A DNA stretch of 37,729 nucleotides. It comes from a virus. The notes beneath the pieces are model-generated. The model worked only from the letters and a program-made list of their open reading frames with translations, searched no databases and was not told where the DNA came from. Location of the stretch: positions 1 to 37,729 of the IMG/VR virus record IMGVR_UViG_3300034007_000002; one strand, 5' to 3'. The position numbers were made by a program, and so were the translations under genes. Shown here one piece after another: positions 2,688 to 37,729 of this stretch. Positions within the stretch are counted from its first letter, which is position 1. Every line of letters starts with the position of its first letter.

Positions 2688-3613
2688 TGCCCGAGAGTGT
2701 CGTTAATTTTGTCGGCCCCTACACGGCGCAGAGTCTCATTGACCACATCGGGACTCCGACGCCGACGACGGCCGTCTGCTGGAAGCTCAGACCCGACCCG
2801 GCAAGCCCGCTCTACGCCTCGGGTCTGGAAGTGCGCGCCACCTCGCACGACCGGCCGCTCGTCCTTCCCGGCCACGGCTCTGCGTCGTTCCTGCCCGGCG
2901 TGGCGGGTATGCCGACGACGATTGACACCGAGAGCGGCCACGAATCGGCGGGGCTTCAATACGAGACCGTCTTCAACTCGGCGGGAATAACGCGCGAATC
3001 ACTCACGGCCGGGGATTGGGTGAAGGCGCGCGTCGAGATTTACACGGTCAACGTCAAAGCCCTGAACATGGGGCAGCTTATAGAGTTCGCGGGCTTCCTC
3101 GGCCGCGCCGACGAAGAGGGCGAACTGTGGAAGGCCGAGGCGCGACCCCTGACCGCCGTCGCGCAGGCGCAAGTCGGGAGGCTCACCTCTGCCCGCTGCA
3201 CCGTCAAGCGGCTCGGGGATGCGCGCTGCAAGGTCAATCTCAATGCTCCGGCCGTCGGGGACGGGGGCGCCATCCTCGTCAACGGCACTCTGACGCAGGT
3301 CGTGAGCGTGACACGCGTCCGCGCCTCTGCGCTTACGCAGACCGGCAACTATTTCGAGCTTCTTAAATTCACGTCGGGGCCGCTCTCGGGGCGGGAGTAT
3401 GAGGTCAGGGAATACGACCCCGCTAATAAAGAGTTCATCCTCCGCGACCCGATGCACCTGCTGCCGGCGGTCGGTAACACTTTCACCGCGACGCGCAGGT
3501 GTAACCGCGACCCGGCCGACTGCGTGCGCATCTACGCGAACATCATCAACAACCGGGGCTACAGGTTTATTACCAACGTCGAGCAGATCAACAAGATTCA
3601 GAGGGCTTCCTGA
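2687..3613 (+). CDS. Tail hub protein, DUF2163 / BR0599-like (RcGTA g13-like)
   Basis: ATGA start/stop overlap with the upstream gene. Contains RCTVKRLGDARCKVNL and a C-terminal RRCNRDPADCVRIYANIINNRGYRFI Cys motif typical of this family. Confidence 0.8.
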   Translation: MPESVVNFVGPYTAQSLIDHIGTPTPTTAVCWKLRPDPASPLYASGLEVRATSHDRPLVLPGHGSASFLPGVAGMPTTIDTESGHESAGLQYETVFNSAGITRESLTAGDWVKARVEIYTVNVKALNMGQLIEFAGFLGRADEEGELWKAEARPLTAVAQAQVGRLTSARCTVKRLGDARCKVNLNAPAVGDGGAILVNGTLTQVVSVTRVRASALTQTGNYFELLKFTSGPLSGREYEVREYDPANKEFILRDPMHLLPAVGNTFTATRRCNRDPADCVRIYANIINNRGYRFITNVEQINKIQRAS

Positions 3614-4098
3614 TGTCGGAGACAACCGCACTCTACAGGCCGGGACTCGTTACCCGCGACGACATCGTGAGGGTCGCACGCACGCTCAAAGGCGTGCCGT
3701 TCAGGCATCAAGGCTCTTATCCCAAGACCGGCCTCGACTGTCGCGGTGTCATCGAGTACATCGCCTTCGCGCTGTGGGGGCGATCTATCCCCGCACGCGA
3801 GTACCAGCGCAAGCCCGACGGCGCGGAGTTCCTTGAGAAGATGCGCGCCGAGATGACGGAGATTGACCCGGCGGACGCGCGGCACGGCGACGCGGTGCTG
3901 ATTCACTTCCCGCGAGACGCCGAGGCGAGGCACGGCGGCGTGCTCGCCGACGGGCCTGTGTTCGCCGCCGACCCTTCCGAGCGGATGCTGATACACGCCT
4001 GGGAGAGTCGCGGCGAGGGTGAGGTGAGGGAAGAGCCTTTGCGCGGGTGGAAGCGCAAAAACATTGATTACGCCTTCCGCTTCCCCGGCATCAGTTAG
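3613..4098 (+). CDS. NlpC/P60-family cell-wall peptidase (RcGTA g14-like, tail-associated)
   Basis: GVPFRHQGSYPKTGLDCRGVIEY (catalytic Cys context) with downstream His residues (HGDAVLIHF...RHGGV). ATGA overlap with the upstream gene. Confidence 0.8.
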   Translation: MSETTALYRPGLVTRDDIVRVARTLKGVPFRHQGSYPKTGLDCRGVIEYIAFALWGRSIPAREYQRKPDGAEFLEKMRAEMTEIDPADARHGDAVLIHFPRDAEARHGGVLADGPVFAADPSERMLIHAWESRGEGEVREEPLRGWKRKNIDYAFRFPGIS

Positions 4099-11437: not shown

Positions 11438-11713
11438 CTACTGAGCGTCCCCTTTTCGCAGCGCCTCAAGCTCGCGCCGCATGGCCTCATACCTGAACTC
11501 GTCAACGCGCGGCAGGGACGAGACGAGCCGGTCTTCGATGGCCGACGAAAAGCTCTCGCGCTCGCCGGCTTCGATGTAGGTGAAGGCGTGGACGAGCAGC
11601 AGGAGCCGCGCGACCTGTTCGGCGTTCCCGGCGCTCGTGATGCTCTCCGCGAGGTCTGCCGCCTCTTCAAACGTGAGCGGGTTGCTCCCGCGCCAGTCGG
11701 GTTGCTTCGGCAT
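11438..11713 (-). CDS. Hypothetical protein (91 aa), last gene of the leftward operon
   Basis: Its ATG shares one base with the TGA of the upstream gene (TGATG). The product starts MPKQPDWRGSNPLTFEEAADL. Confidence 0.6.
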   Translation of the reverse strand: MPKQPDWRGSNPLTFEEAADLAESITSAGNAEQVARLLLLVHAFTYIEAGERESFSSAIEDRLVSSLPRVDEFRYEAMRRELEALRKGDAQ

Positions 11714-12189
11714 CACGCGCCCCCTTTCTCGGCGCGCGCGGCCCGCAACGCGCGCCGCCTGTCCGTCCCGGTCAACGCTTCGACGCGCGCAGCCGAAGGG
11801 ACGAAGGGCGGGGCGCTGAGAACGTCGCACGCCACCGGGAACAGCGCCTTGACCGCCGCCGGGTATTCGATGAAGTGCCGGAGCGCGACGCCGCAGACCT
11901 CTAGGGCGTAGGCGCTAACCGCGTCGTAAACCTCCGGCGGCGTCGCGGGGTCACTCAGCACGGCGGCGATGTTGTGCGCGACGCGGGCGACCTCGCCGCG
12001 CGCCACGTCTCCGCGCGGCCTCCCGCCTCCCATACCTATCTCACTCAGTGTCGCCAGTTCGGCGGCCGTGTATTCCGTCAGCCGATACCCGCCCGCGACC
12101 AACGTGCGGCGGCGGGCGAAGTCGTCTGCCCACTCGCGCGCGGCGGCCTTGCCCTTCGCGCTGCGCCTCTGTACTTTCTTCGTAGTCAT
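11713..12189 (-). CDS. Hypothetical protein (158 aa) with basic N-terminal tag MTTKKVQRRSAKGK
   Basis: The internal ATG at 12189 reproduces the N-terminus of the neighbouring gene. The longer tracked ORF start looks like out-of-context extension. Confidence 0.6.
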   Translation of the reverse strand: MTTKKVQRRSAKGKAAAREWADDFARRRTLVAGGYRLTEYTAAELATLSEIGMGGGRPRGDVARGEVARVAHNIAAVLSDPATPPEVYDAVSAYALEVCGVALRHFIEYPAAVKALFPVACDVLSAPPFVPSAARVEALTGTDRRRALRAARAEKGGA

Positions 12190-12266
12190 TAGTTGCACTT
12201 CCCTTCTAAGTTGTGGACTTTGGCCGAAGGGGCGGGCGGTGTGGAGCACTACCCGCCCCCGCATCT

Positions 12267-12836
12267 CTACACGCCCACGACGGACGCGCGCACCTCTTCG
12301 GCCGTCGCGTCATCGTTCAACGCCTCCCGCAGCGTCTCGAAGATTGAGAGGAACTGTTCCGGTACGCCGTCGCAGTTCTTCGTCATCTCCAGGAGCGTGA
12401 GCGGCAGCATGACGCGCACGACGGCGGGCGTCGTCCACGACACGTTACTGCCGTCGAGAATGTCGTCCGTGAAGACGGCCCCGAACGCGTGCCGGAAGGC
12501 GTCGGAGCAGTTCGGGTGCTCAAGCGTGCGGCAGAGCATTTCCACGGACGCGAGCCACTTGCGGAGGTCGCCGTCCGTGACGGCCCTATCTCGCATCCGG
12601 CCGGGCAGCGTGACGACCATGTGAACGTCTCCGGGTCGCGTCTCGTCGTAGACGACGGCGAGGCGGGAGAGCGCGAACGGGTTGTTGTGGTGGTTCTCGT
12701 AGTGGGCGAGCGCGGCGTCGAAAGCCTTCCGCGCGTATTCGACGGCGTCGGTCTTGAACGCCTCGGCGGCGTCCGGCCTCTCGGCCGGCTTGCCCTTGCG
12801 GCTCGCGCCGCGCTTCTGTACCTTCTTGGTGGTCAT
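12267..12836 (-). CDS. Hypothetical protein (189 aa) with basic N-terminal tag MTTKKVQKRGASRKGK; first gene of the leftward operon
   Basis: AAGGGA SD upstream of the ATG. The N-terminal 15 aa are paralogous to those of 11713..12189. Confidence 0.65.
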   Translation of the reverse strand: MTTKKVQKRGASRKGKPAERPDAAEAFKTDAVEYARKAFDAALAHYENHHNNPFALSRLAVVYDETRPGDVHMVVTLPGRMRDRAVTDGDLRKWLASVEMLCRTLEHPNCSDAFRHAFGAVFTDDILDGSNVSWTTPAVVRVMLPLTLLEMTKNCDGVPEQFLSIFETLREALNDDATAEEVRASVVGV

Positions 12837-12973
12837 CTACTTATCCCTTTCGTTGGTAGGTTGTTGGCCGTGAGCCGTTGGCGTGCCTGTAACACGCTGG
12901 CGGCTCGTTTCCCTTCTGGCCCTGCGTTCGGTCGGAGGTGAATTCGCTCCGCCGAATGGTTAACTTGTGCGTA

Positions 12974-13002
12974 AGTCTAACGCGAGAGAAAGGGAAAGTC
13001 AA
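12974..13002 (-). promoter_or_regulatory. Leftward promoter TTGACT-17-TAGACT
   Basis: The minus strand reads TTGACT ttccctttctctcgcgt TAGACT. The -10 is embedded in CGCGTTAGACTT. Confidence 0.55.
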
Positions 13003-13016
13003 ACTAACAATTACTC

Positions 13017-13046
13017 TTGCGTAAACTTTTCTTTGGCGTTAGACTT
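13017..13046 (+). promoter_or_regulatory. Rightward promoter TTGCGT-17-TAGACT, 8 nt upstream of ATG 13054 (leaderless mRNA predicted)
   Basis: TTGCGT aaacttttctttggcgt TAGACT tcccagcc ATG. The -10 is embedded in GGCGTTAGACTT. No SD can fit in the 8-nt gap. Confidence 0.55.
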
Positions 13047-14609: not shown

Positions 14610-15308
14610 ATGGACGAAATAGCAACTCAGAAGTTCGTAAAGGAAGCAGTCTCACAATTCGTAGAGCTATGGGAAGATATTCCTGAAGCCCAACTAATCA
14701 AGCGCGACTCCAATCACTTCTTAATTGTTAAACCAACCTCTCTAATAAAAGAACTAAATGATGCCATACCATACGCAACGATACACATAAACTTAGAAGA
14801 GTTGTCCAGGCATTTTTTAAAGTCCGGGTCTATCGGGGAGCCAAGTATAGATAAAAGGTACATTGCTAAATTACAGATTCACGACATGCTCCGTACGGCT
14901 GAACTTGCCCCTAGCGTCTTCTCCTATTTCCTTAATTTTCTAGAGATATTGACGCTCCGAGAAGGTTTGGAGTCCCTATTAGGGTCTTTATCTGAAGACT
15001 CAAAGACAAAACTTGCAGAAGTTGCTGAACGCCTATTTCAAGTCATGTTGCAGCACTATAAGCTTCTGAAGGAGACAAAGCCCGGAGCCTCAAGTGTTAT
15101 TACTGATTTTGAAGCGCTTGAGGTCTTCCGCAAATCTAGGAATAGAGTGCTTTCCAAACGCCAATTAGCAAAAGAGATGCAAACAACTCCGGCTACCGTG
15201 CGTAGTTGGCTTCACAGAAAGGGATTCAAATCATCTGAAGAATTGCTGGATGATCTTTTAAAGCGTATTCACACTCTAATAGACAATGCACGGGAGGGTG
15301 AGAAGTAA
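14610..15308 (+). CDS. Low-GC paralog 1: unknown N-terminal domain plus C-terminal HTH
   Basis: Aligns by eye with 15380..16147. The N-termini share MDE..Q...K..V..F...W.D.PEAQ..KRD..HFLIVK and HINLEE. The C-termini share KPGASSVI...LAKE..T.PATVR.WL..KG..S..EL.DD. Confidence 0.75.
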   Translation: MDEIATQKFVKEAVSQFVELWEDIPEAQLIKRDSNHFLIVKPTSLIKELNDAIPYATIHINLEELSRHFLKSGSIGEPSIDKRYIAKLQIHDMLRTAELAPSVFSYFLNFLEILTLREGLESLLGSLSEDSKTKLAEVAERLFQVMLQHYKLLKETKPGASSVITDFEALEVFRKSRNRVLSKRQLAKEMQTTPATVRSWLHRKGFKSSEELLDDLLKRIHTLIDNAREGEK

Positions 15309-15379: not shown

Positions 15380-16147
15380 ATGGACGAAGAGGCAATCCAG
15401 AGGCTTGCGAAGAACGTAGTAGTGACGTTTCTAGTGGATTGGAAAGACACGCCCGAGGCGCAGGTGGTTAAGCGAGACGGGGCACATTTCTTGATCGTGA
15501 AGCTAGACTCACCGTTCTCTGCTGCGTTACATATCAATCTGGAAGAGAGATGCGAGCATGAGCTAAAACATCTCTACGAAGTAGTCGGGACGGAAGAAAG
15601 TGCGGACGATACTACTGACCTTATTTATAGTCTCGTCTATCGCCTACCACAGGAACTAACTTACATAACTAGAAGCGTGCCCGGTCTCTTCATCTACAGT
15701 CTTCATCTGCTGGACTTGTTAGCGTACCGTGAGCGCCTACGATCTGTATCAGAGTCTTTAACTCAAGGCAGACGGGAAAGGACTGAACTAGTAGCCAGAA
15801 TATTAACTCAAGGGTTATTACTGGCGCATGGCTTAACAGAGAGAAAGAAGCCGGGAGCATCAAGTGTCATCGATGACGACAAAGTACTTGATATTTTTCT
15901 TAGACTCCAAGGTGACGTGCCTTCAATCCGTAGGTTAGCAAAAGAACTAGAAACCGAACCTGCCACCGTGCGTAACTGGCTTCGCAAGAAGGGCTACAAC
16001 TCGCCTAAAGAATTAGCAGACGACGTAGTAAATTCAAATTCCAACTCAAAAGTAGATTTCTTTCTAAAAGTCAAAAGGTTACTTACTAAAAGTCAAAAGG
16101 GAACAACGGAAAGAAAGCAAAGGGGGAGGGTAGAAATTAAGCCCTAA
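15380..16147 (+). CDS. Low-GC paralog 2: unknown N-terminal domain plus C-terminal HTH
   Basis: Shares the motifs listed for 14610..15308. Its last codons lie inside the left arm of the 33-bp inverted repeat. Confidence 0.75.
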   Translation: MDEEAIQRLAKNVVVTFLVDWKDTPEAQVVKRDGAHFLIVKLDSPFSAALHINLEERCEHELKHLYEVVGTEESADDTTDLIYSLVYRLPQELTYITRSVPGLFIYSLHLLDLLAYRERLRSVSESLTQGRRERTELVARILTQGLLLAHGLTERKKPGASSVIDDDKVLDIFLRLQGDVPSIRRLAKELETEPATVRNWLRKKGYNSPKELADDVVNSNSNSKVDFFLKVKRLLTKSQKGTTERKQRGRVEIKP

Positions 16148-16211
16148 TCCTACCCGGGTAGAATTAACCTCGAATTATTACCTGGGTAGGATTAGGGCTT
16201 AATTTCTACCC
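16128..16211. repeat. 33-bp inverted repeat (one mismatch, G-U compatible) around an 18-nt spacer
   Basis: The left arm GGGTAGAAATTAAGCCCTAATCCTACCCGGGTA (16128-16160) pairs with TACCTGGGTAGGATTAGGGCTTAATTTCTACCC (16179-16211). Confidence 0.9.
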
Positions 16212-16213
16212 AA

Positions 16214-16241
16214 TTGACAGGATTTAGATTGGCGTTAGACT
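16214..16241 (+). promoter_or_regulatory. Promoter TTGACA-16-TAGACT
   Basis: TTGACA at 16214-16219 and TAGACT at 16236-16241. The -10 context TTGGCGTTAGACT is identical to that at 13033-13045. Confidence 0.55.
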
Positions 16242-16247
16242 GCGATT

Positions 16248-16506
16248 ACAGAAGCGGCGGGTGTGGCCCTGGAAAGTCAACACCCGCCGCGAGTCAAACC
16301 AGGACTTTTGACAGCCCCGGCTCGTTTGCGAGTGTAGCGAGAACCGACCCGGGGCGCAACAGCCATGAAGGCCGCCCCGTGATGGCGCTCTCTAGTAGGG
16401 CGTCGGCTGAGCCGTAGGTTTAGGTTTCTCGCGCACCGCTTTGCGTGAGATGGCAGGGCGTTCGTCGTCGGGGGTCACGGCCCGACGGCGGACGCCTTTT
16501 GCTTTT
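16248..16506 (+). ncRNA. Candidate structured RNA or attenuator leader of about 260 nt between promoter and terminator
   Basis: No convincing ORF. There is an 11-bp perfect stem, GCGGCGGGTGT...ACACCCGCCGC, at about 16254-16290. Nested CCCCGG/CCGGGG helices follow, and the region ends in the strong terminator at 16457-16506. Confidence 0.35.
16457..16506 (+). terminator. Strong rho-independent terminator
   Basis: A 16-bp stem pairs 16457-16472 with 16481-16496 (two G-U pairs) around an 8-nt loop, followed by TTTTGCTTTT. Confidence 0.7.
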
Positions 16507-16526
16507 GACGGCGGCCGGTATCACGC

Positions 16527-16859
16527 ATGAAAAACCCCTTTCAGAACGGTTCGCTACGTTACGTCGAGGCGAACGGCGTCCGCTTTACTCGATCCGTCTG
16601 CGGGTACTGCGGTCTTCCCTGTGTCTACCTGGGGGAGGCCATCCGCATCGACTTAGCCGAGGGCGGCTTCCAAATCCTCCACGTCTGCCTCCCCTGCCGA
16701 CGGCACCTGTGTTTAGACCTGCGGGGGTTATCGGACGCCGAAGTAGACCGCCTCGGATATCCCAGCGGGTATCCCAGCGGGTATCCCAACCGCTCGCCGA
16801 GAAACGAGCGCCACCTCGAAGAAGTGCACAGCCGGTGGGAAAGGAGACGTGCAGCGTAA
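16527..16859 (+). CDS. Zinc-ribbon protein (110 aa) with a GYPSGYPSGYP repeat, translationally coupled to the primase gene
   Basis: CGYCG...C...HVCLPC forms a four-Cys motif. Its TAA overlaps the primase ATG (TAATG). The alternative frame, the N-terminal extension of the 774-aa ORF, is Arg-rich and protein-unlike. There is no clear SD before ATG 16527. Confidence 0.55.
   Translation: MKNPFQNGSLRYVEANGVRFTRSVCGYCGLPCVYLGEAIRIDLAEGGFQILHVCLPCRRHLCLDLRGLSDAEVDRLGYPSGYPSGYPNRSPRNERHLEEVHSRWERRRAA
16756..16791. repeat. Tandem 12-bp repeat x3 (GATATCCCAGCG GGTATCCCAGCG GGTATCCCAACC)
   Basis: Read directly. It lies inside the zinc-ribbon ORF, about 70-100 bp upstream of the primase start. Confidence 0.9.
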
Positions 16860-18769
16860 TGGCTCAGCCCGCCACGGCCTTCACGAAGCAGGACGCGAAG
16901 AGGGACCGCCAGACTTACCAGCGGCTCGCCGGCATCGTTGACCGCCTCCTGCACCGTGACATCCAACGCCTCGACGAAGAGACGGCGCGGAAGTTCTTCA
17001 AGTCGTCGGTCTTCGCCACCATCCACAGCCTGCACGGATTCCTGAACGGCCGCGAGGTCTCGCACGACAGGCCGGTGATGAAGGCTCACAAGTTCGTCGT
17101 CGAGCACTTCGGCTACCGCGGCGACCGCGAGAACGACGCGGCCGTCGCGCGCTTCATGGCGCGCCACCTCTCGGGGCTGGCCGACGCGGAGAGGGCCGTC
17201 GGGCACCGGTACGTCACCGTCCGCCGCGCCGACAATCAGACCCAGCTCTTCACCAGCTACGAGGGCACACCGCTGCTCGACGCGGCCGAGTGGGTCTACT
17301 TCACGGCGCGGCAGAAGCCCGACTACTGGAAGAACCCGGCGGCGGCCGTGACGGACGATTTGCTCGACGCCGCGCTCGCCAAACTCCCCGAGGTCAAGAC
17401 GCGGGACGACTCCATGCCGTGCGGTCATGCGCCCGAATCCGGCGAGTGCGACGAGTGCGTGCCTAAGACCTTCTGCGGGCATCCTTCGGGGTCGGGCCAG
17501 TGCGAAGAGTGCGAGAAATGGGAGGCGGGCGACCTGATGAACGATTCAGTCGTCAAGGGCATGTGGACGAAGATAATAAACGCCGCCGAGCGGGCGTTAA
17601 TCAAGGAGTTCGATTCCGGCGCGGACCCGGAGCTGGCCGCCGCCAAACACGCCGCGAAGATTATCGAGATGGGCAAGCATATCAAGGAGAAGCTCGCCCG
17701 CGAGCGGCTTCGGGCGGCGATGATGCCTGCGCGGCGACATGACGAGGAGGACGAGGACACGCAAACGACGCACAGTGGTAAAGAAAGTGTTACCTCAAAC
17801 GCGGGGGGTACCCCTGACAAATTTGTCAGGGTACCCGATGATTATGTAGTTGAACCGGTTGAGGTTACTGAACCGGCCGCAGAGGATTTACCCGAAATTC
17901 AGCGCAACGCGCTCGAATACGCGGCGGCGGGGATCGCCGTCCTCCCGCTGTGGGGGGTCGCGGACGCGATTTGTGATTGCCCCGCGGGTTCGGAGTGCCG
18001 GACGGCCGGGAAGCACCCGCACAGCCAGCTCGCCCGGAACGGCGTCTACTCGGCTACGATCGACGGGCAGGTCATACGCGGCTGGTTCAAGAAAGACCCG
18101 CGGATCAACCTGGGGGTTGCGATGGGCGGCGCCCTCAACCTCATCTGCGTAGACATAGACCCGCGCAACGACGGCGACGCCTCGTATTCAGATTTGATAG
18201 ACGCCCACGGCGAAGACGCCTTTCCCGAGACGTTCACCGTGAAGACCGGCGGGGGCGGCTGGCACCGCTACTACAGGCTCCCCTACACCATCAAAGCCGA
18301 GAAAGGCGAGCTAAAGGGAAAGCTCGGCCCCGGCATCGACATCAAAGGCGCGGGCGGGCAGATAGTCGCGCCCGGCTCAGTTCACTCAAGCGGCGCTTCC
18401 TATCAGGTCGAAACTAACGCCTACATCGTGGAAGCCCCGGAGTGGATGGTAAACGTCCTGCTCAAGTCGGCGTCCGGCGAGAAGCCCGAGGTCGTTGTTG
18501 ACTTTCAGGCGCACAGCGACCGGAAGCGCGCGGGGGTGGGCGGCCCAATCATCGTCGAGGGCGAGCGCAACGAAAGGCTCTTTAAGGTCGGGTGCGCGCT
18601 GTGGGGCAAGGGCGAAGTGGGGAGCCGGGGGGAGTTGTTACAGCGCCTCTCCGAAGTGAACCTCAAAAGGGTGTCACCCCCGCTCGACTCGGATGAGGTT
18701 TGGAAGATTGTTGAGAGCATAGTGAGCCGCTACGCCCTAGGCGTGCCGATTAAGGAAGGTGCCGCATGA
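16859..18769 (+). CDS. Bifunctional primase-polymerase (Prim-Pol domain plus PriCT-like C-terminus) with a roughly 330-aa N-terminal region of unknown type
   Basis: AAGGAG lies upstream of ATG 16859. Prim-Pol motifs are GIAVLPLWG...GKHP...NLICVDIDPRNDG...GGGWHRYY...GIDIKGAGGQIVAPGSVH. The C-terminus GERNERLFKVGCALWGKG...PLDSDEVWKIVESI is PriCT-like. Confidence 0.85.
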   Translation: MAQPATAFTKQDAKRDRQTYQRLAGIVDRLLHRDIQRLDEETARKFFKSSVFATIHSLHGFLNGREVSHDRPVMKAHKFVVEHFGYRGDRENDAAVARFMARHLSGLADAERAVGHRYVTVRRADNQTQLFTSYEGTPLLDAAEWVYFTARQKPDYWKNPAAAVTDDLLDAALAKLPEVKTRDDSMPCGHAPESGECDECVPKTFCGHPSGSGQCEECEKWEAGDLMNDSVVKGMWTKIINAAERALIKEFDSGADPELAAAKHAAKIIEMGKHIKEKLARERLRAAMMPARRHDEEDEDTQTTHSGKESVTSNAGGTPDKFVRVPDDYVVEPVEVTEPAAEDLPEIQRNALEYAAAGIAVLPLWGVADAICDCPAGSECRTAGKHPHSQLARNGVYSATIDGQVIRGWFKKDPRINLGVAMGGALNLICVDIDPRNDGDASYSDLIDAHGEDAFPETFTVKTGGGGWHRYYRLPYTIKAEKGELKGKLGPGIDIKGAGGQIVAPGSVHSSGASYQVETNAYIVEAPEWMVNVLLKSASGEKPEVVVDFQAHSDRKRAGVGGPIIVEGERNERLFKVGCALWGKGEVGSRGELLQRLSEVNLKRVSPPLDSDEVWKIVESIVSRYALGVPIKEGAA

Positions 18770-20471: not shown

Positions 20472-20702
20472 ATGACCAGAACTTTAACGGCGACGATCTG
20501 GCGCGAGACGGACGGCTACGTCTCCCTCTGCCCCGAACTCGACATCGCCTCACAAGGGGATACGGTCGAGGAGGCGCGGGCGAACCTCCAGGAGGCGGTG
20601 GACCTCTTCTTCGAGGCGGCGGACGCCTCCGAGGTGGCCGAGCGTCTGAAGCCCGAGATGTACGTCACTTCGCTGGAGGTCAACGTTGGGGAGGCTGCGT
20701 AG
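20472..20702 (+). CDS. hicB: HicB-family antitoxin
   Basis: LTATIWRETDGYVSLCPELDIASQGDTVEEARANLQEAVDLFFE fits the HicB/UPF0150 N-terminal pattern. It overlaps the downstream toxin gene. Confidence 0.85.
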   Translation: MTRTLTATIWRETDGYVSLCPELDIASQGDTVEEARANLQEAVDLFFEAADASEVAERLKPEMYVTSLEVNVGEAA

Positions 20703-20910
20703 GCTCTCGGGGCGCGAGGTCTGCGCCATCCTCGCCCGCCACGGCTTCGCCGAGGCCCGCCAGCGCGGGAGTCACGTGGTCATGCAGAGGAGGACGGACC
20801 AGGGGACGGTGACCGTGCCGGTACCCCTCCACAACGAGCTGCGCACCGGCACGCTCCACTCCATCATCAGGCAGTCGGGGGTTCCGCGGGCGGAGTTCGA
20901 GACGGAGTAA
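20686..20910 (+). CDS. hicA: HicA-family mRNA interferase toxin (TTG start)
   Basis: LSGREVCAILARHGFAEARQRGSHVVMQR....VTVPVPLHNELRTGTLHSIIRQSGV fits the HicA/YcfA pattern. Confidence 0.85.
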   Translation: MGRLRRLSGREVCAILARHGFAEARQRGSHVVMQRRTDQGTVTVPVPLHNELRTGTLHSIIRQSGVPRAEFETE

Positions 20911-21575: not shown

Positions 21576-22433
21576 ATGAAGGCTTACAAGGATTTTGGCC
21601 TTAAAGAGAATCCATTCGTGCCGAGTCCGAACCCCCGGTTCCTCTACCTGACCGACCAGACGAATGCTTGCCTCTTCAAGTGCAAGTTTGTCATCGAGGA
21701 GCGGCAGGGACTCTCCCTCATCGTCGGGAAAATCGGCTACGGCAAGACTTCGGTGCTGCGCGAGCTCCTGAACGGGTACATCGACGACGAGACTTACAAG
21801 ATCGCGATGCTCCCGAACGGCAGCTTCCCTTCCGAGATGCAGCTCGCGAAGGCCATCTCCAGTGAGTTGGGGCTCCCGGGTCGCCGGTCATTACTCGCGC
21901 AAATAAATGAGATACGCGACTACGCTTTCCAGATTTACGGCGGCGGCGGGACCATCATTCTCATCATCGACGAGGCGCAGAATCTTAAGGGCGCTCAGTT
22001 CGATTTCCTCCGGGAATTGCTCAATTTTGAGAGTAACGAGGCGAAGACCATTCAGATCATCATCGCCGGCCAGCCCGAGATTGAAACCAAACTGGCGACC
22101 AAGCCCGCACTCGTCTCCCGCATCATCCTGACGAACTACCTGGATACCTTCACGTTCGAGGACATGGTGGCCGCCCTGGAGCACCGGATACGCCTCGCCG
22201 GGGGTAAGCTCGACATCCTCGGTGAGGACGCGTTGAAGGCTCTCTACGTCGCTTCCAGGGGCGTCCCGCGCGAGATCATGAAGATTGCCAACGCTTCCCT
22301 TCTCCTCGCGGCCGTCAACGAAACCAGACCGATCACCGACGGCATCATCAAGCTAGCGGTCGAGAACATTTTGAGCACGGAACGAAATGGAGAACCGGAA
22401 ACCACTGAACTTCGCGCAGGCGCTTCGCAGTAG
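21576..22433 (+). CDS. ExeA-like AAA+ ATPase (AAA_22 type; relatives include ExeA, TniB and MuB-like proteins)
   Basis: FGLKENPFVPSPNPRFLYLTDQ...LIVGKIGYGKTSVLRELL (Walker A) and IILIIDEAQNL (Walker B). Confidence 0.85.
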   Translation: MKAYKDFGLKENPFVPSPNPRFLYLTDQTNACLFKCKFVIEERQGLSLIVGKIGYGKTSVLRELLNGYIDDETYKIAMLPNGSFPSEMQLAKAISSELGLPGRRSLLAQINEIRDYAFQIYGGGGTIILIIDEAQNLKGAQFDFLRELLNFESNEAKTIQIIIAGQPEIETKLATKPALVSRIILTNYLDTFTFEDMVAALEHRIRLAGGKLDILGEDALKALYVASRGVPREIMKIANASLLLAAVNETRPITDGIIKLAVENILSTERNGEPETTELRAGASQ

Positions 22434-35964: not shown

Positions 35965-37729
35965 ATGGCACGCACCCAACAAGACATTCTCGTCAAGATT
36001 AAAGTCCTTCTCGAAGGACTCGGGAATGTGCGTGCGCTCGCCGGCCACGTTAAAGAGTTGAACGGCGGGAGCGGGCAGACGGCGGCGCTGGCCGGAAACA
36101 TTGACCGGCTCGCGGGAGCCGTCGATCGACTCGCCAACGCGTCGGGGAAGACCGCGAAGTCCAGCGGCGGCTTCGTGCGCTTCCTCGTCGGCGTCTCGGC
36201 GGTCGTCTCTACCCTCGCCACCATCCCCCAAGCCTTCCAGGGCATCAACAAGCTGCTCGACCTCGCCGAGCGTCTGGGGGGCGGTCTCGGCGGCCTCTTC
36301 GGGAAGCTCACAGGGCTATTCCAGCGCGCGGGGGCGGCAGCGTCGAGCGCCCTGTCGTCGGTCGGCTCTTCGCTCTCAGGACTCGTCAGCGGGGCGGGGG
36401 CGGGCGCTGGCGGGGCGCTGGCTGGCATAGGCGGGGCGCTGGCCGCCCTCGCCCCCTTCGCGCTCGCTGCGGCCGCCGCGCTCGTCGTCGTCGTCGGGGT
36501 GGTGGCGGCGGCGGCGGCCGGCTTCCTCTCGCTCGCCGCTTCGGTCGGGGTCGGTGCCGTCGCGCTTACCTTCATCGCGCAGCGCGGGCTTGAGGTTCAA
36601 CGCTCGCTTGAGCAGGTGCGGCTCGGCATCGCCGCAATCATCACCTCTCTGGCCGACGTGAAGGTGGACGGCCTGCCCGTCGAGGGCGCGGAGAAGTTCC
36701 GCGCCGCGATGGCCGTCTCCGCCGACCAGTTAAAGAAGCTCCAGGTGGACGCCGTCAACACGGTGGCGACCTTCGAGCAGATTGCCCCCGCGTTTCAGAC
36801 CGCCATCGGGCCGGGGCTGGCCGCCAAGCTCACGCTCGACGAAATACGGGGCATCACGGTCAAGGTCGTGCAGGCGGCCTCCGCCATCGGCCTGCCGCTC
36901 AATCAGGTCAGTCAGGAAGTCCGCGCCATCCTCGAAGGCACCATCAACGAGGACGCGCGCCTCGCCAAAGTGCTCGGCATCTCTAACGAGATGGTCAAGT
37001 CGTGGAAGGCGCAGGGGAAGCTCGCCGAAGAGTTGAACAAGCGCCTCGCGGGCTTCGCGGTCGCGGGCGTCGAGGCCGCCGAGACGATGGACGGCCTGAC
37101 CTCGAATCTTGAAGAGGCTTTGAACGTCTTCTCGGCCGAGGCGACGGGGCGAGCCTTCGACGCTCTCAAAGGCGAGTTCAAGCGGCTCCTCCCGCAGCTC
37201 TTCGACTTCAAGAGCGCAGGGATAGCCGCGCAGTTTAAGGGACTCACGACGCTGGCCGACGAGGTGCTGGTCAGGGTCGTGCGCATCGGGGGCGGGATAG
37301 CGCAGAGCATCGTCTCGGGTCTGCGGCAGGCTTCGGCGTTCGTCCAACAGAACCGCAGCCAGATCGACGCCGTGCTGAATCAGATAGAGCTAATGGTGCG
37401 CCTGCTGCTGCGCGCCGTGGGCGTCGTCGCGCAGATCGCCACCTCTTCCGCGACGTGGGGCAGCACGCTCTCGGCGGTGCAGACCATCCTCGGGTTAATT
37501 AACGTCATCCTCGCGCTCGTCCTCGACCAGTTCCGGCAGATGGCCCCTTACCTTCAGCTCGCCATCCTCGCCGCAAACCTGCTCATCGCTTCACAGCCCG
37601 CCCTCGCCGCCGCCGCGCGGGTCGGCGCCGGCGGGGCGAGCGGGCAGGAGCCGACCGGACTCAGTTCCGTGCGGCTCAACCCGGACGGGAGCCTCAAGGG
37701 TGGGATTAGCGTCGCGGGCGGTGCGCGAG
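35965..37729 (+). CDS. Tail tape measure protein, N-terminal portion (continues at 128..2022 through the overlap; about 1219 aa in total)
   Basis: ATG 35965 is the only start after the in-frame TAG at 35896. The frame stays open to the window end and matches the phase of 1..2022. It contains the hydrophobic segment ALAPFALAAAAALVVVVGVVAAAAAGFL and long helical repeats. Confidence 0.9.
   Translation, partial: MARTQQDILVKIKVLLEGLGNVRALAGHVKELNGGSGQTAALAGNIDRLAGAVDRLANASGKTAKSSGGFVRFLVGVSAVVSTLATIPQAFQGINKLLDLAERLGGGLGGLFGKLTGLFQRAGAAASSALSSVGSSLSGLVSGAGAGAGGALAGIGGALAALAPFALAAAAALVVVVGVVAAAAAGFLSLAASVGVGAVALTFIAQRGLEVQRSLEQVRLGIAAIITSLADVKVDGLPVEGAEKFRAAMAVSADQLKKLQVDAVNTVATFEQIAPAFQTAIGPGLAAKLTLDEIRGITVKVVQAASAIGLPLNQVSQEVRAILEGTINEDARLAKVLGISNEMVKSWKAQGKLAEELNKRLAGFAVAGVEAAETMDGLTSNLEEALNVFSAEATGRAFDALKGEFKRLLPQLFDFKSAGIAAQFKGLTTLADEVLVRVVRIGGGIAQSIVSGLRQASAFVQQNRSQIDAVLNQIELMVRLLLRAVGVVAQIATSSATWGSTLSAVQTILGLINVILALVLDQFRQMAPYLQLAILAANLLIASQPALAAAARVGAGGASGQEPTGLSSVRLNPDGSLKGGISVAGGAR
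37603..37729. repeat. Second copy of the 127-bp terminal overlap
   Basis: Identical to 1-127 by direct comparison. Confidence 0.95.

Follow-up and report, generated by a model that had tools for sequence, protein, structure and literature searches.

A promoter-abutting array of 28-bp dyad units as a putative operator for a rare helix-turn-helix protein in an Acidobacteriota phage

The 37,729-nt stretch of viral DNA analysed here (record IMGVR_UViG_3300034007_000002, hereafter the window) carries at positions 16128-16211 an 84-bp element that had been described as a near-perfect inverted repeat beside two paralogous helix-turn-helix (HTH) genes, here termed X1 and X2. The element consists of three tandem 28-bp dyad units, and with moderate confidence it is read as a cis-regulatory operator array serving the promoter that it abuts; X is the most likely protein to bind it, and the array would link the early operon to the next transcription unit. 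Among the functions offered by the original prediction, a protein-binding site for the adjacent HTH paralogs appears to be the best supported, given the 28-bp period of the motif, its 0-2 bp register to the -35 box and its co-occurrence with X in 11 loci.

The inverted repeat itself proved to be real. Its arms (16128-16160 and 16179-16211) are 33 nt each, with complementarity at 32 of 33 positions and 18 nt between them, and the lone mismatch, G16156 opposite T16183, is indeed compatible with pairing in RNA, as G·U in plus-strand RNA and as C·A on the minus strand. No longer inverted repeat occurs in the window, the runner-up (found with the 33-nt repeat masked) having 15-nt arms, and the best arm in 60 block shuffles keeping local composition was 12-17 nt. 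Folded as RNA, the 84 nt reach -63.3 kcal/mol (z about -10 to -12); as DNA they reach -36.9 kcal/mol (z -10.8). An assembly artefact was rejected, the same palindromes having been recovered in independent JGI, NCBI, ENA and Logan assemblies.

The 33-nt repeat is, however, a secondary property of the way in which the units are arranged. Unit 1 (GGGTAGAAATTAAGCCCTAATCCTACCC, 16128-16155), unit 2 (GGGTAGAATTAACCTCGAATTATTACCT, 16156-16183) and unit 3 (GGGTAGGATTAGGGCTTAATTTCTACCC, 16184-16211) each form an imperfect dyad, GGGTAG-N16-CTACCC, with AT-rich inner flanks, and both hexamers recur with a strict 28-bp period; repeated units with inverted, conserved half-sites are the arrangement expected of an operator array. 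The long repeat stems from the relation between units 1 and 3, each the reverse complement of the other: they agree at 28 of 28 positions in that orientation and at just 18 of 28 directly. While the 18 nt between the arms had been counted correctly, they are not a neutral spacer: they form the core of unit 2, which is degenerate and resembles unit 2 of the relative L001, and pairing extends into them. The stem as a whole is 33-38 bp long, has a G+C content (GC) of about 39% and encloses the 28-nt inner unit. Unit 1 holds the final codons and the TAA stop (16145-16147) of X2. The stop had thus been placed properly in the left arm, but the six codons ascribed to it are two bases of R250 followed by five full codons (VEIKP). 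In relatives X terminates at one of two places, the TAG of the first GGGTAG or the TAA of CCCTAAT; because the stop differs in position in this way the coding overlap of unit 1 is incidental, and a coding constraint on the left arm was rejected. No other copy of the 28-bp unit was found anywhere in the window genome and no second copy of the array in the window or in about 190 kb of related loci, a single site per genome that fits a dedicated switch.

Eleven distinct loci were recovered, and an array of one to three units follows the last X gene in all of them; a TTGAC(A/G) box adjoins the array in all but the most distant one. Three units are present in L002 (outer-unit complementarity 27 of 28, TTGACG promoter) and in L019 (25 of 28), L008 (21 of 28) and L018 (20 of 28, no better than its direct identity of 22 of 28), the last three with a TTGACA promoter. 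Two units, again with TTGACA, are found in L010 (21 of 28) and in L001, where they match at 28 of 28 positions and make a perfect 56-bp palindrome that recurs in the independent assemblies L003-L007 and L012. L021 has three diverged units (GGGGAAG, GGGTAG and GGGGAG) with no outer complementarity, a 2-bp gap and the promoter TTGACG-16-TAAAAT, and L011 a single dyad with the half-site GGGAAG, then 1 bp and TTGACA. The one unit of L022/L023 (GGGTA-N23-TACCC) is directly followed by ATGACA, the promoter there being uncertain, and the array of L009 is incomplete as its contig ends within it. A profile built from 23 units of nine loci showed nearly invariant GGGTAG/CTACCC ends, A5 invariant (23/23), A8 and T21 almost so (22/23 and 21/23) and six variable nucleotides in the centre.

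The promoter beside the array (16214-16241, plus strand) is of the sigma-70 type, TTGACA-16 nt-TAGACT, and with 10 of 12 consensus matches it is among the few of that quality in the genome. A TTGACA box after the right arm had been predicted and is present, although it begins at 16214, so that the gap from the promoter-proximal unit 3 is 2 bp (AA) rather than 3 bp. Nine relatives retain its -35 box, the 16-nt spacing and a -10 box of the form TAnnnT, while the letters of the -10 box vary (TAGACT, TATCGT, TAACCT, TAAAAT), which is good comparative evidence that the promoter is real. Between the proximal unit and TTGAC(A/G) there are 1-2 bp in ten loci, whether one, two or three units are present; these comprise the window, L001, L002, L008, L010, L018, L019, L021, L011 and, presumably, L009 with its truncated array. 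With the unit of L022 directly abutting ATGACA, the gap is 0-2 bp in every locus with a complete array, and the promoter position is accordingly a fixed one.

X2 (255 amino acids (aa), 15380-16147, plus strand) is the last gene of the upstream operon, which runs on the plus strand from an apparent start at a promoter-like site at about 13017-13045. An orphan protein, it has an alpha/beta domain at the N terminus, helices in the middle and an HTH at the C terminus. Its paralog X1 (232 aa, 14610-15308, plus strand; 39% identity) has the same HTH segment, and no array follows X1; the lone X of L002 is about 40% identical to each of the two. Members of the X family range from 232 to 264 aa, and the family is rare and unannotated, with nine clusters at 90% identity and 28 matches among 1.84 billion representatives. 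The invariant columns cluster in a C-terminal S-x-R-x-LAKE-x-x-T-x-P-x-x-x-R-x-WL-x-x-KG, a segment modelled as three short helices with a predicted local distance difference test score (pLDDT) of about 85; the AlphaFold2 model of the whole protein is mediocre (pLDDT 65, predicted template modelling score 0.40). Full-length X gave no Pfam match of any kind at E <= 0.01. The isolated C-terminal segment matches many HTH families of Pfam weakly, with one match above the curated cut-off (CENP-B_N, in P0009), and can reasonably be regarded as an HTH without assignment to a named family. Neither Foldseek of the model against PDB and BFVD (E <= 0.001) nor a PDB profile search returned a match.

Array and X were found together in 11 of 11 loci, and three lineages that are only about 40% identical overall retain both the HTH segment and the GGGTAG half-site. 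The half-site changes in the most distant members, being GGGAAG in L011 (38% identity); co-variation of site and protein comes from two distant loci, L011 and L022, and the HTH is below threshold in Pfam. In L022 a differing palindromic array with half-sites CCGGAAGTAATT was also observed (2089-2161), directly upstream of the promoter of the leader homolog described below. It is preceded by a 280-aa gene whose C-terminal segment has an X-like HTH layout, without significant protein similarity, and this gene and its array are suggestive of a parallel cognate pair of regulator and operator.

A 100-kb contig from a Pyrinomonadaceae metagenome-assembled genome (MAG) contains an integrated prophage with a close relative of X2, and the host group is accordingly Acidobacteriota; this prophage was the sole match in the genome-collection scan. 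The metagenome scan with the X protein alignment gave five loci, three of which hold the HTH segment alone (28-29% identity) in apparently unrelated coding sequence with no array, and two of which are cut at a contig end. INPHARED phages matched neither positions 14.5-18.8 kb by blastn nor X by tblastn. The exact 18-mer of the arm had no match in IMG/VR, its degenerate pattern matched solely two related contigs, a generic skeleton of the array found nothing else in the viral collection, and a conserved 27-mer of the leader terminator (see below) found nothing in the metagenome scan.

Under the operator-array reading, which we infer from the conserved site design and its constant association with X, dimers of X2, and possibly also of X1, would occupy one unit each. 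From the promoter-proximal unit bound X would modulate RNA polymerase at the 16214-16241 promoter, so that expression of the early operon, with X2 as its last gene, would be coupled to the next stage of the phage programme; the unit so regulated would comprise the structured leader RNA with its terminator and then the replication genes. Several observations weigh against this interpretation. X has no characterised homolog, with negative results from Pfam, NCBIfam, PHROGs, a PDB sequence search and Foldseek against PDB and BFVD. A period of 28 bp corresponds to 2.7 helical turns, placing successive units on different faces of the helix. The -35 box is already consensus, so an activator may be unneeded, and a site lying wholly upstream of -35 would be an unusual place for a simple steric repressor. 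The co-variation of the outer units, moreover, is not predicted by simple independent dimer sites.

This co-variation was evident in the long-range model, that of pairing between units 1 and 3. Across six three-unit arrays, whose relatedness to each other tempers the pair statistics, 82.5% of the cells were paired, and eight pairs had changed on both sides, a number reached by 0 of 500 shuffles; the covariation score of 0.195 compares with 0.106 for the shuffles and is well above all slid controls. For the three local dyads covariation did not exceed that of shuffles (234, 174 and 42 of 500 on the respective measures); they are conserved in sequence rather than compensated. Each of the six unit-1 substitutions that separate the window, L001 and L002 has a mirrored counterpart in the partner unit. 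Fold energies show a very strong hairpin potential for the window, L002, L019 and L001 (z -8 to -13.5), one that is still clear for L008 and L018 (z -6.2), weak for L010 (z -3.0) and absent from L021, L011 and L022 (z -0.6 to -1.6), with L021 having three in-register units and a hairpin z of -0.6. As the array and its promoter register are kept where the hairpin is lost, the property conserved across the family is the repeated motif in promoter register and not the long stem.

It follows from the co-varying outer units that, in part of the family, complementarity between the outer arms is maintained, whether through homogenisation by template switching or through a structural role as hairpin or cruciform. 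Template switching during replication is known to homogenise the arms of inverted repeats and to invert their spacers (PMC8604942; PMC8794818). In keeping with such quasipalindromes, every difference between lineages whose arms are near-perfect is mirrored in both arms, and a spacer-inversion signature lies about 100 nt away: compared with L001, L008, L010 and L019, the window has the 21-nt top of the first leader hairpin (16254-16290) in inverted orientation (18 of 21 identities inverted, 10 of 21 direct), a small inversion between stem arms that bears the signature of template switching. Template switching would, however, be a mutational mechanism for the perfection of the arms and not a function, and leaves the periodicity of the motif and its promoter register unexplained.

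Downstream of the promoter lies a structured non-coding leader RNA (16248-16507, plus strand; start inferred from the -10 box). Positions 16212-16526 are about 93% identical between the window and L001, whereas the proteins upstream are about 50% identical and those downstream unrelated; because of single-base insertions and deletions among relatives the leader contains no conserved open reading frame (ORF). Positions 16246-16510 fold at -136.8 kcal/mol (z -4.8), and in a consensus structure that takes in two distant homologs 24 of the 70 pairs show compensatory changes. Neither the leader nor the palindrome matched an Rfam family at gathering thresholds; at relaxed E-values the sole matches were of generic long-hairpin microRNA models to the palindrome, with at most 48 bits against gathering scores of 50-100. 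The leader ends in an intrinsic terminator (16455-16507, plus strand), the strongest in the genome, in which a stem of 18 pairs (16455-16498) is followed by the tract TTTTGCTTTTG, 20 nt ahead of the next start codon. Compensatory changes in the terminator stem were seen in L011 and L022. Regulation of the leader is suggested by a helix, UGCGUGA/UCACGCA (16447-16453 paired with 16520-16526), which encloses the terminator and reaches up to the ATG at 16527.

The first gene after the leader is a Cys-rich ORF of 110 aa (16527-16859, plus strand), conserved in L002, and it is followed by a Prim-Pol/PriCT_1 replication protein (16886-18769, plus strand) whose likely true start is ATG 16886, as in the 637-aa L002 homolog; the listed 774-aa ORF from 16445 to 18769 is over-extended through the terminator and the Cys-rich ORF. 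The same two genes follow in the window and L002, DUF3854 and a 342-aa protein, an excisionase and an integrase in L001, and two unannotated proteins (355 and 250 aa) in L008. From these differing downstream proteins it follows that array, promoter and leader form a cassette that fronts interchangeable replication modules. Sliding identity between the window and L002 is about 95% except over 14.58-16.28 kb, where the two are diverged; compared with L001 or L008 the window is similar from X2 through 16525 and unrelated past that point. The breakpoints of similarity, at about 14.58, 16.25-16.3 and 16.525 kb, fall at the start of the X genes, in the first hairpin of the leader and in the first codons of the next ORF; X, array and promoter travel as one variable module between phages otherwise 95% identical.

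Extra non-coding DNA parts the array promoter from the leader in L002 and L011, where the leader has its own promoter. Between array promoter and leader there is a non-coding element of about 225 nt in L011 (2215-2440) and L021 (2135-2351), about 88% identical between the two and absent from the window; it had no Rfam match and may be another structured RNA. In L002 seven exact TGTGGAAA motifs occur within 244 bp of AT-rich non-coding DNA (3446-3689) and nowhere else in the 11.6-kb locus. Three of the seven are exact matches to the DnaA box TTWTNCACA, and the cluster, also situated between array promoter and leader and absent from the window, looks like an origin or DnaA-binding region.

The presence of the leader terminator makes an antitermination design possible. 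By analogy, and not by homology, with lambda Q and its qut site, X, loaded onto RNA polymerase at the array, might carry the enzyme past the leader terminator and on to the replication genes and later ones, so that X, array, promoter, leader and terminator would act as a processive-antitermination switch, with the 260-nt RNA as a new class of cis-acting regulatory RNA in Acidobacteriota phages; this extension we regard as doubtful, with a small chance of being right. In a variant of it, X would recognise the array in the form of an extruded cruciform; this would account for the upkeep of both the motif and the long-range pairing. In lambda the order is the Q gene, PR', a short terminated '6S' transcript, tR' and the late operon. 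The likeness lies in a regulator gene placed last in its upstream operon, a single site at a strong promoter (16214-16241) and a short transcript, about 260 nt here, with a strong intrinsic terminator (16455-16507) before a long plus-strand operon. Unlike lambda Q, X matches no Pfam Q family, the array is upstream of the -35 box and not within the promoter, and the first 20 transcribed bases show no evident conserved pause element of the -10-like kind: inspection of the aligned relatives by eye turned up no conserved TAnnnT from the -10 box to the conserved AGAAGCGG. The leader is also long, highly structured and conserved, unlike 6S RNA, and the operon behind the terminator starts with replication genes.

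In site design the closest described analogue seems to be the p4 system of phi29, with sites 1-4 and an early-to-late switch at A2c, A2b and A3. The p4 sites are dyads of 5'-CTTTTT-15 bp-AAAATG-3', two per region, beside promoters under p4 control (PMC3100819; PMC1904284). Both systems have imperfect inverted repeats with 6-bp ends about 15-16 bp apart and an AT-rich interior, and in both the dyads would be independent sites for dimers, two or three side by side at regulated promoters; p4 is a phage early protein (PMC3100819; PMC1904284). The two differ in that p4 is a small N-hook protein without an HTH, whereas X has 232-264 aa with a C-terminal HTH and its binding to the array is a prediction, and also in that phi29 requires the nucleoid-like p6 and its p4 sites are not one long perfect palindrome. 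Tandem operators of temperate-phage repressors, such as lambda OR1-OR3, likewise have two or three adjoining dyads at a promoter with the gene of the cognate regulator, for which X is a candidate here, adjacent, and as in an immunity region regulator, operator and promoter form the most variable segment between near-identical phages. The present units, however, are 28 bp against about 17 bp and abut without spacers, and the array is wholly upstream of -35, as one operator region per genome with no divergent promoter pair at the array.

Dyad-site arrays next to phage promoters are an established kind of element; here the sequence, the protein family and the host group are new. Acidobacteriota are a dominant and poorly cultured soil phylum, and gene regulation in their phages is essentially uncharacterised. 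The locus offers a compact and testable module of a rare HTH protein family, probable 28-bp operators, a defined promoter and a conserved leader RNA with a terminator. It also provides a natural case in which conservation of site sequence can be separated from co-variation of the arms in a long palindrome, which bears on template switching in regulatory inverted repeats.

Of the competing explanations, an action of the element as RNA, although unlikely on the whole, has the most to commend it. In transcripts of the early operon (about 13.05-16.15 kb) a 3'-terminal hairpin, its stem about 38 bp long, could serve as a stabiliser, an RNase III site or a U-tract-independent pause or insulator. Its folding energy as RNA, the mismatch that is G·U on the plus strand only and the co-variation of the long-range pairs above shuffles and slid controls all favour this, as do a hairpin potential significant in seven of seven members of the close clade (z -3 to -13.5) and the position of the element, which in all relatives starts at the last early gene's stop codon. 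The original prediction that this is no ordinary terminator was borne out: the bases directly after the repeat are AATTGACAGGATTT, with no U-tract, the same phage has canonical hairpin-plus-U terminators such as that at 16455-16507, and the repeat, which the terminator scan did not call, has a stem beyond the G+C-rich, small-loop form of about 5-15 bp of intrinsic terminators. No U-tract is present immediately 3' of the window stem (AAUUGACAGGAUUUAG), and relatives show the same pattern. A hairpin function, however, sits poorly with the absence of a U-tract in a phage that uses canonical terminators and with the loss of the hairpin in L021, L011 and L022 despite the kept array and promoter register; it also leaves the same hexamers in all three units and the fixed 2-bp gap to -35 unexplained. 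The strong leader terminator 250 nt downstream would already halt read-through, and template switching can also yield co-variation of the arms (PMC8604942; PMC8794818). Distinctly improbable is a replication origin or cruciform, in which the units would be iterons bound by an initiator, or would extrude as a cruciform, and transcription starting at the neighbouring promoter would activate or prime replication. Replication genes always follow a short way downstream of the element, the AT-rich array lies in a genome of 64% GC, L002 has its DnaA-box-like cluster between array promoter and leader, and both the energy of the DNA hairpin and the perfect 56-bp palindrome of L001 are in line with extrusion. 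Against this, the downstream replication proteins (Prim-Pol; DUF3854 with the 342-aa protein; the 355-aa and 250-aa proteins) are non-homologous among relatives that share the array, so no cognate initiator or replicase is conserved with the putative iterons and a common contact between initiator and replisome is unlikely. The window has no DnaA boxes and no turning point in GC skew at 16.2 kb, and the tight -35 register is a transcriptional feature. For the single-strand-origin hairpin that had been proposed, no positive evidence was obtained, and the same lack of homology among the replication genes speaks against it.

Hardly probable at all is a site for site-specific recombination or resolution, or a mosaic junction, whether as an attP core, a target of the protelomerase telRL type or abutted ends of mobile elements. 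The repeat does stand at a boundary in GC content, and the palindrome of L001 is made of two 28-bp halves, its 56 bp being the size of telRL of phage N15. An attP was rejected since in the integrated prophage (L004-L006, L012) the palindrome is intact and internal, with the integrase and the host genes about 3 kb further on. A telRL was rejected since no protelomerase was found by Pfam, PHROG or NCBIfam among the ORFs scanned, which in the window also include no integrase, and since the array centre is palindromic in L001 only, not in the window (AACC|TCGA) or L002. Ends of a miniature inverted-repeat transposable element or insertion sequence were rejected on the single copy per genome, and there is no target-site duplication. 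The proposal of a recombination or module-exchange junction did not hold either, as the breakpoints of similarity lie off the repeat, which is inside the module of HTH gene, array and promoter; a mosaic junction was rejected on this ground.

The window ends, 1-127 and 37603-37729, are identical over exactly 127 nt, indicating a circular assembly (or a terminally redundant genome) of about 37,602 bp. A large terminase and portal, major head, tape-measure and tail proteins are encoded, which identify a tailed phage, together with the Prim-Pol/PriCT replication protein. The genome has about 64% GC with an island of 46-55% at about 12.8-16.2 kb, and the GC boundary reported beside the repeat was confirmed, at about 46-47% over 14.25-16.0 kb against about 65% beyond 16.5 kb. 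In the low-GC island upstream of X, L004 (3523-5319), L008 (4644-6440) and L010 (183-1979) carry on the opposite strand a 598-aa AIPR (abortive-infection) gene, and the window has its second X paralog where several relatives carry this gene. Further upstream, positions 12974-13045 contain divergent promoter-like sites with a mirrored GCGTTAGACT -10 region and a 19-nt inverted repeat (12973-12991 and 13028-13046). This region, between two minus-strand paralogs (11713-12836, both starting MTTKKVQ) and the plus-strand early operon led by an HTH_17 protein, is probably an early control region. Beyond the replication protein, overlapping genes for a HicB-like antitoxin and a HicA-like toxin were observed at 20472-20910, with HicA_toxin annotated on the L008 homolog, and they are followed by an AAA_22/TniB-like ATPase at 21576-22433.

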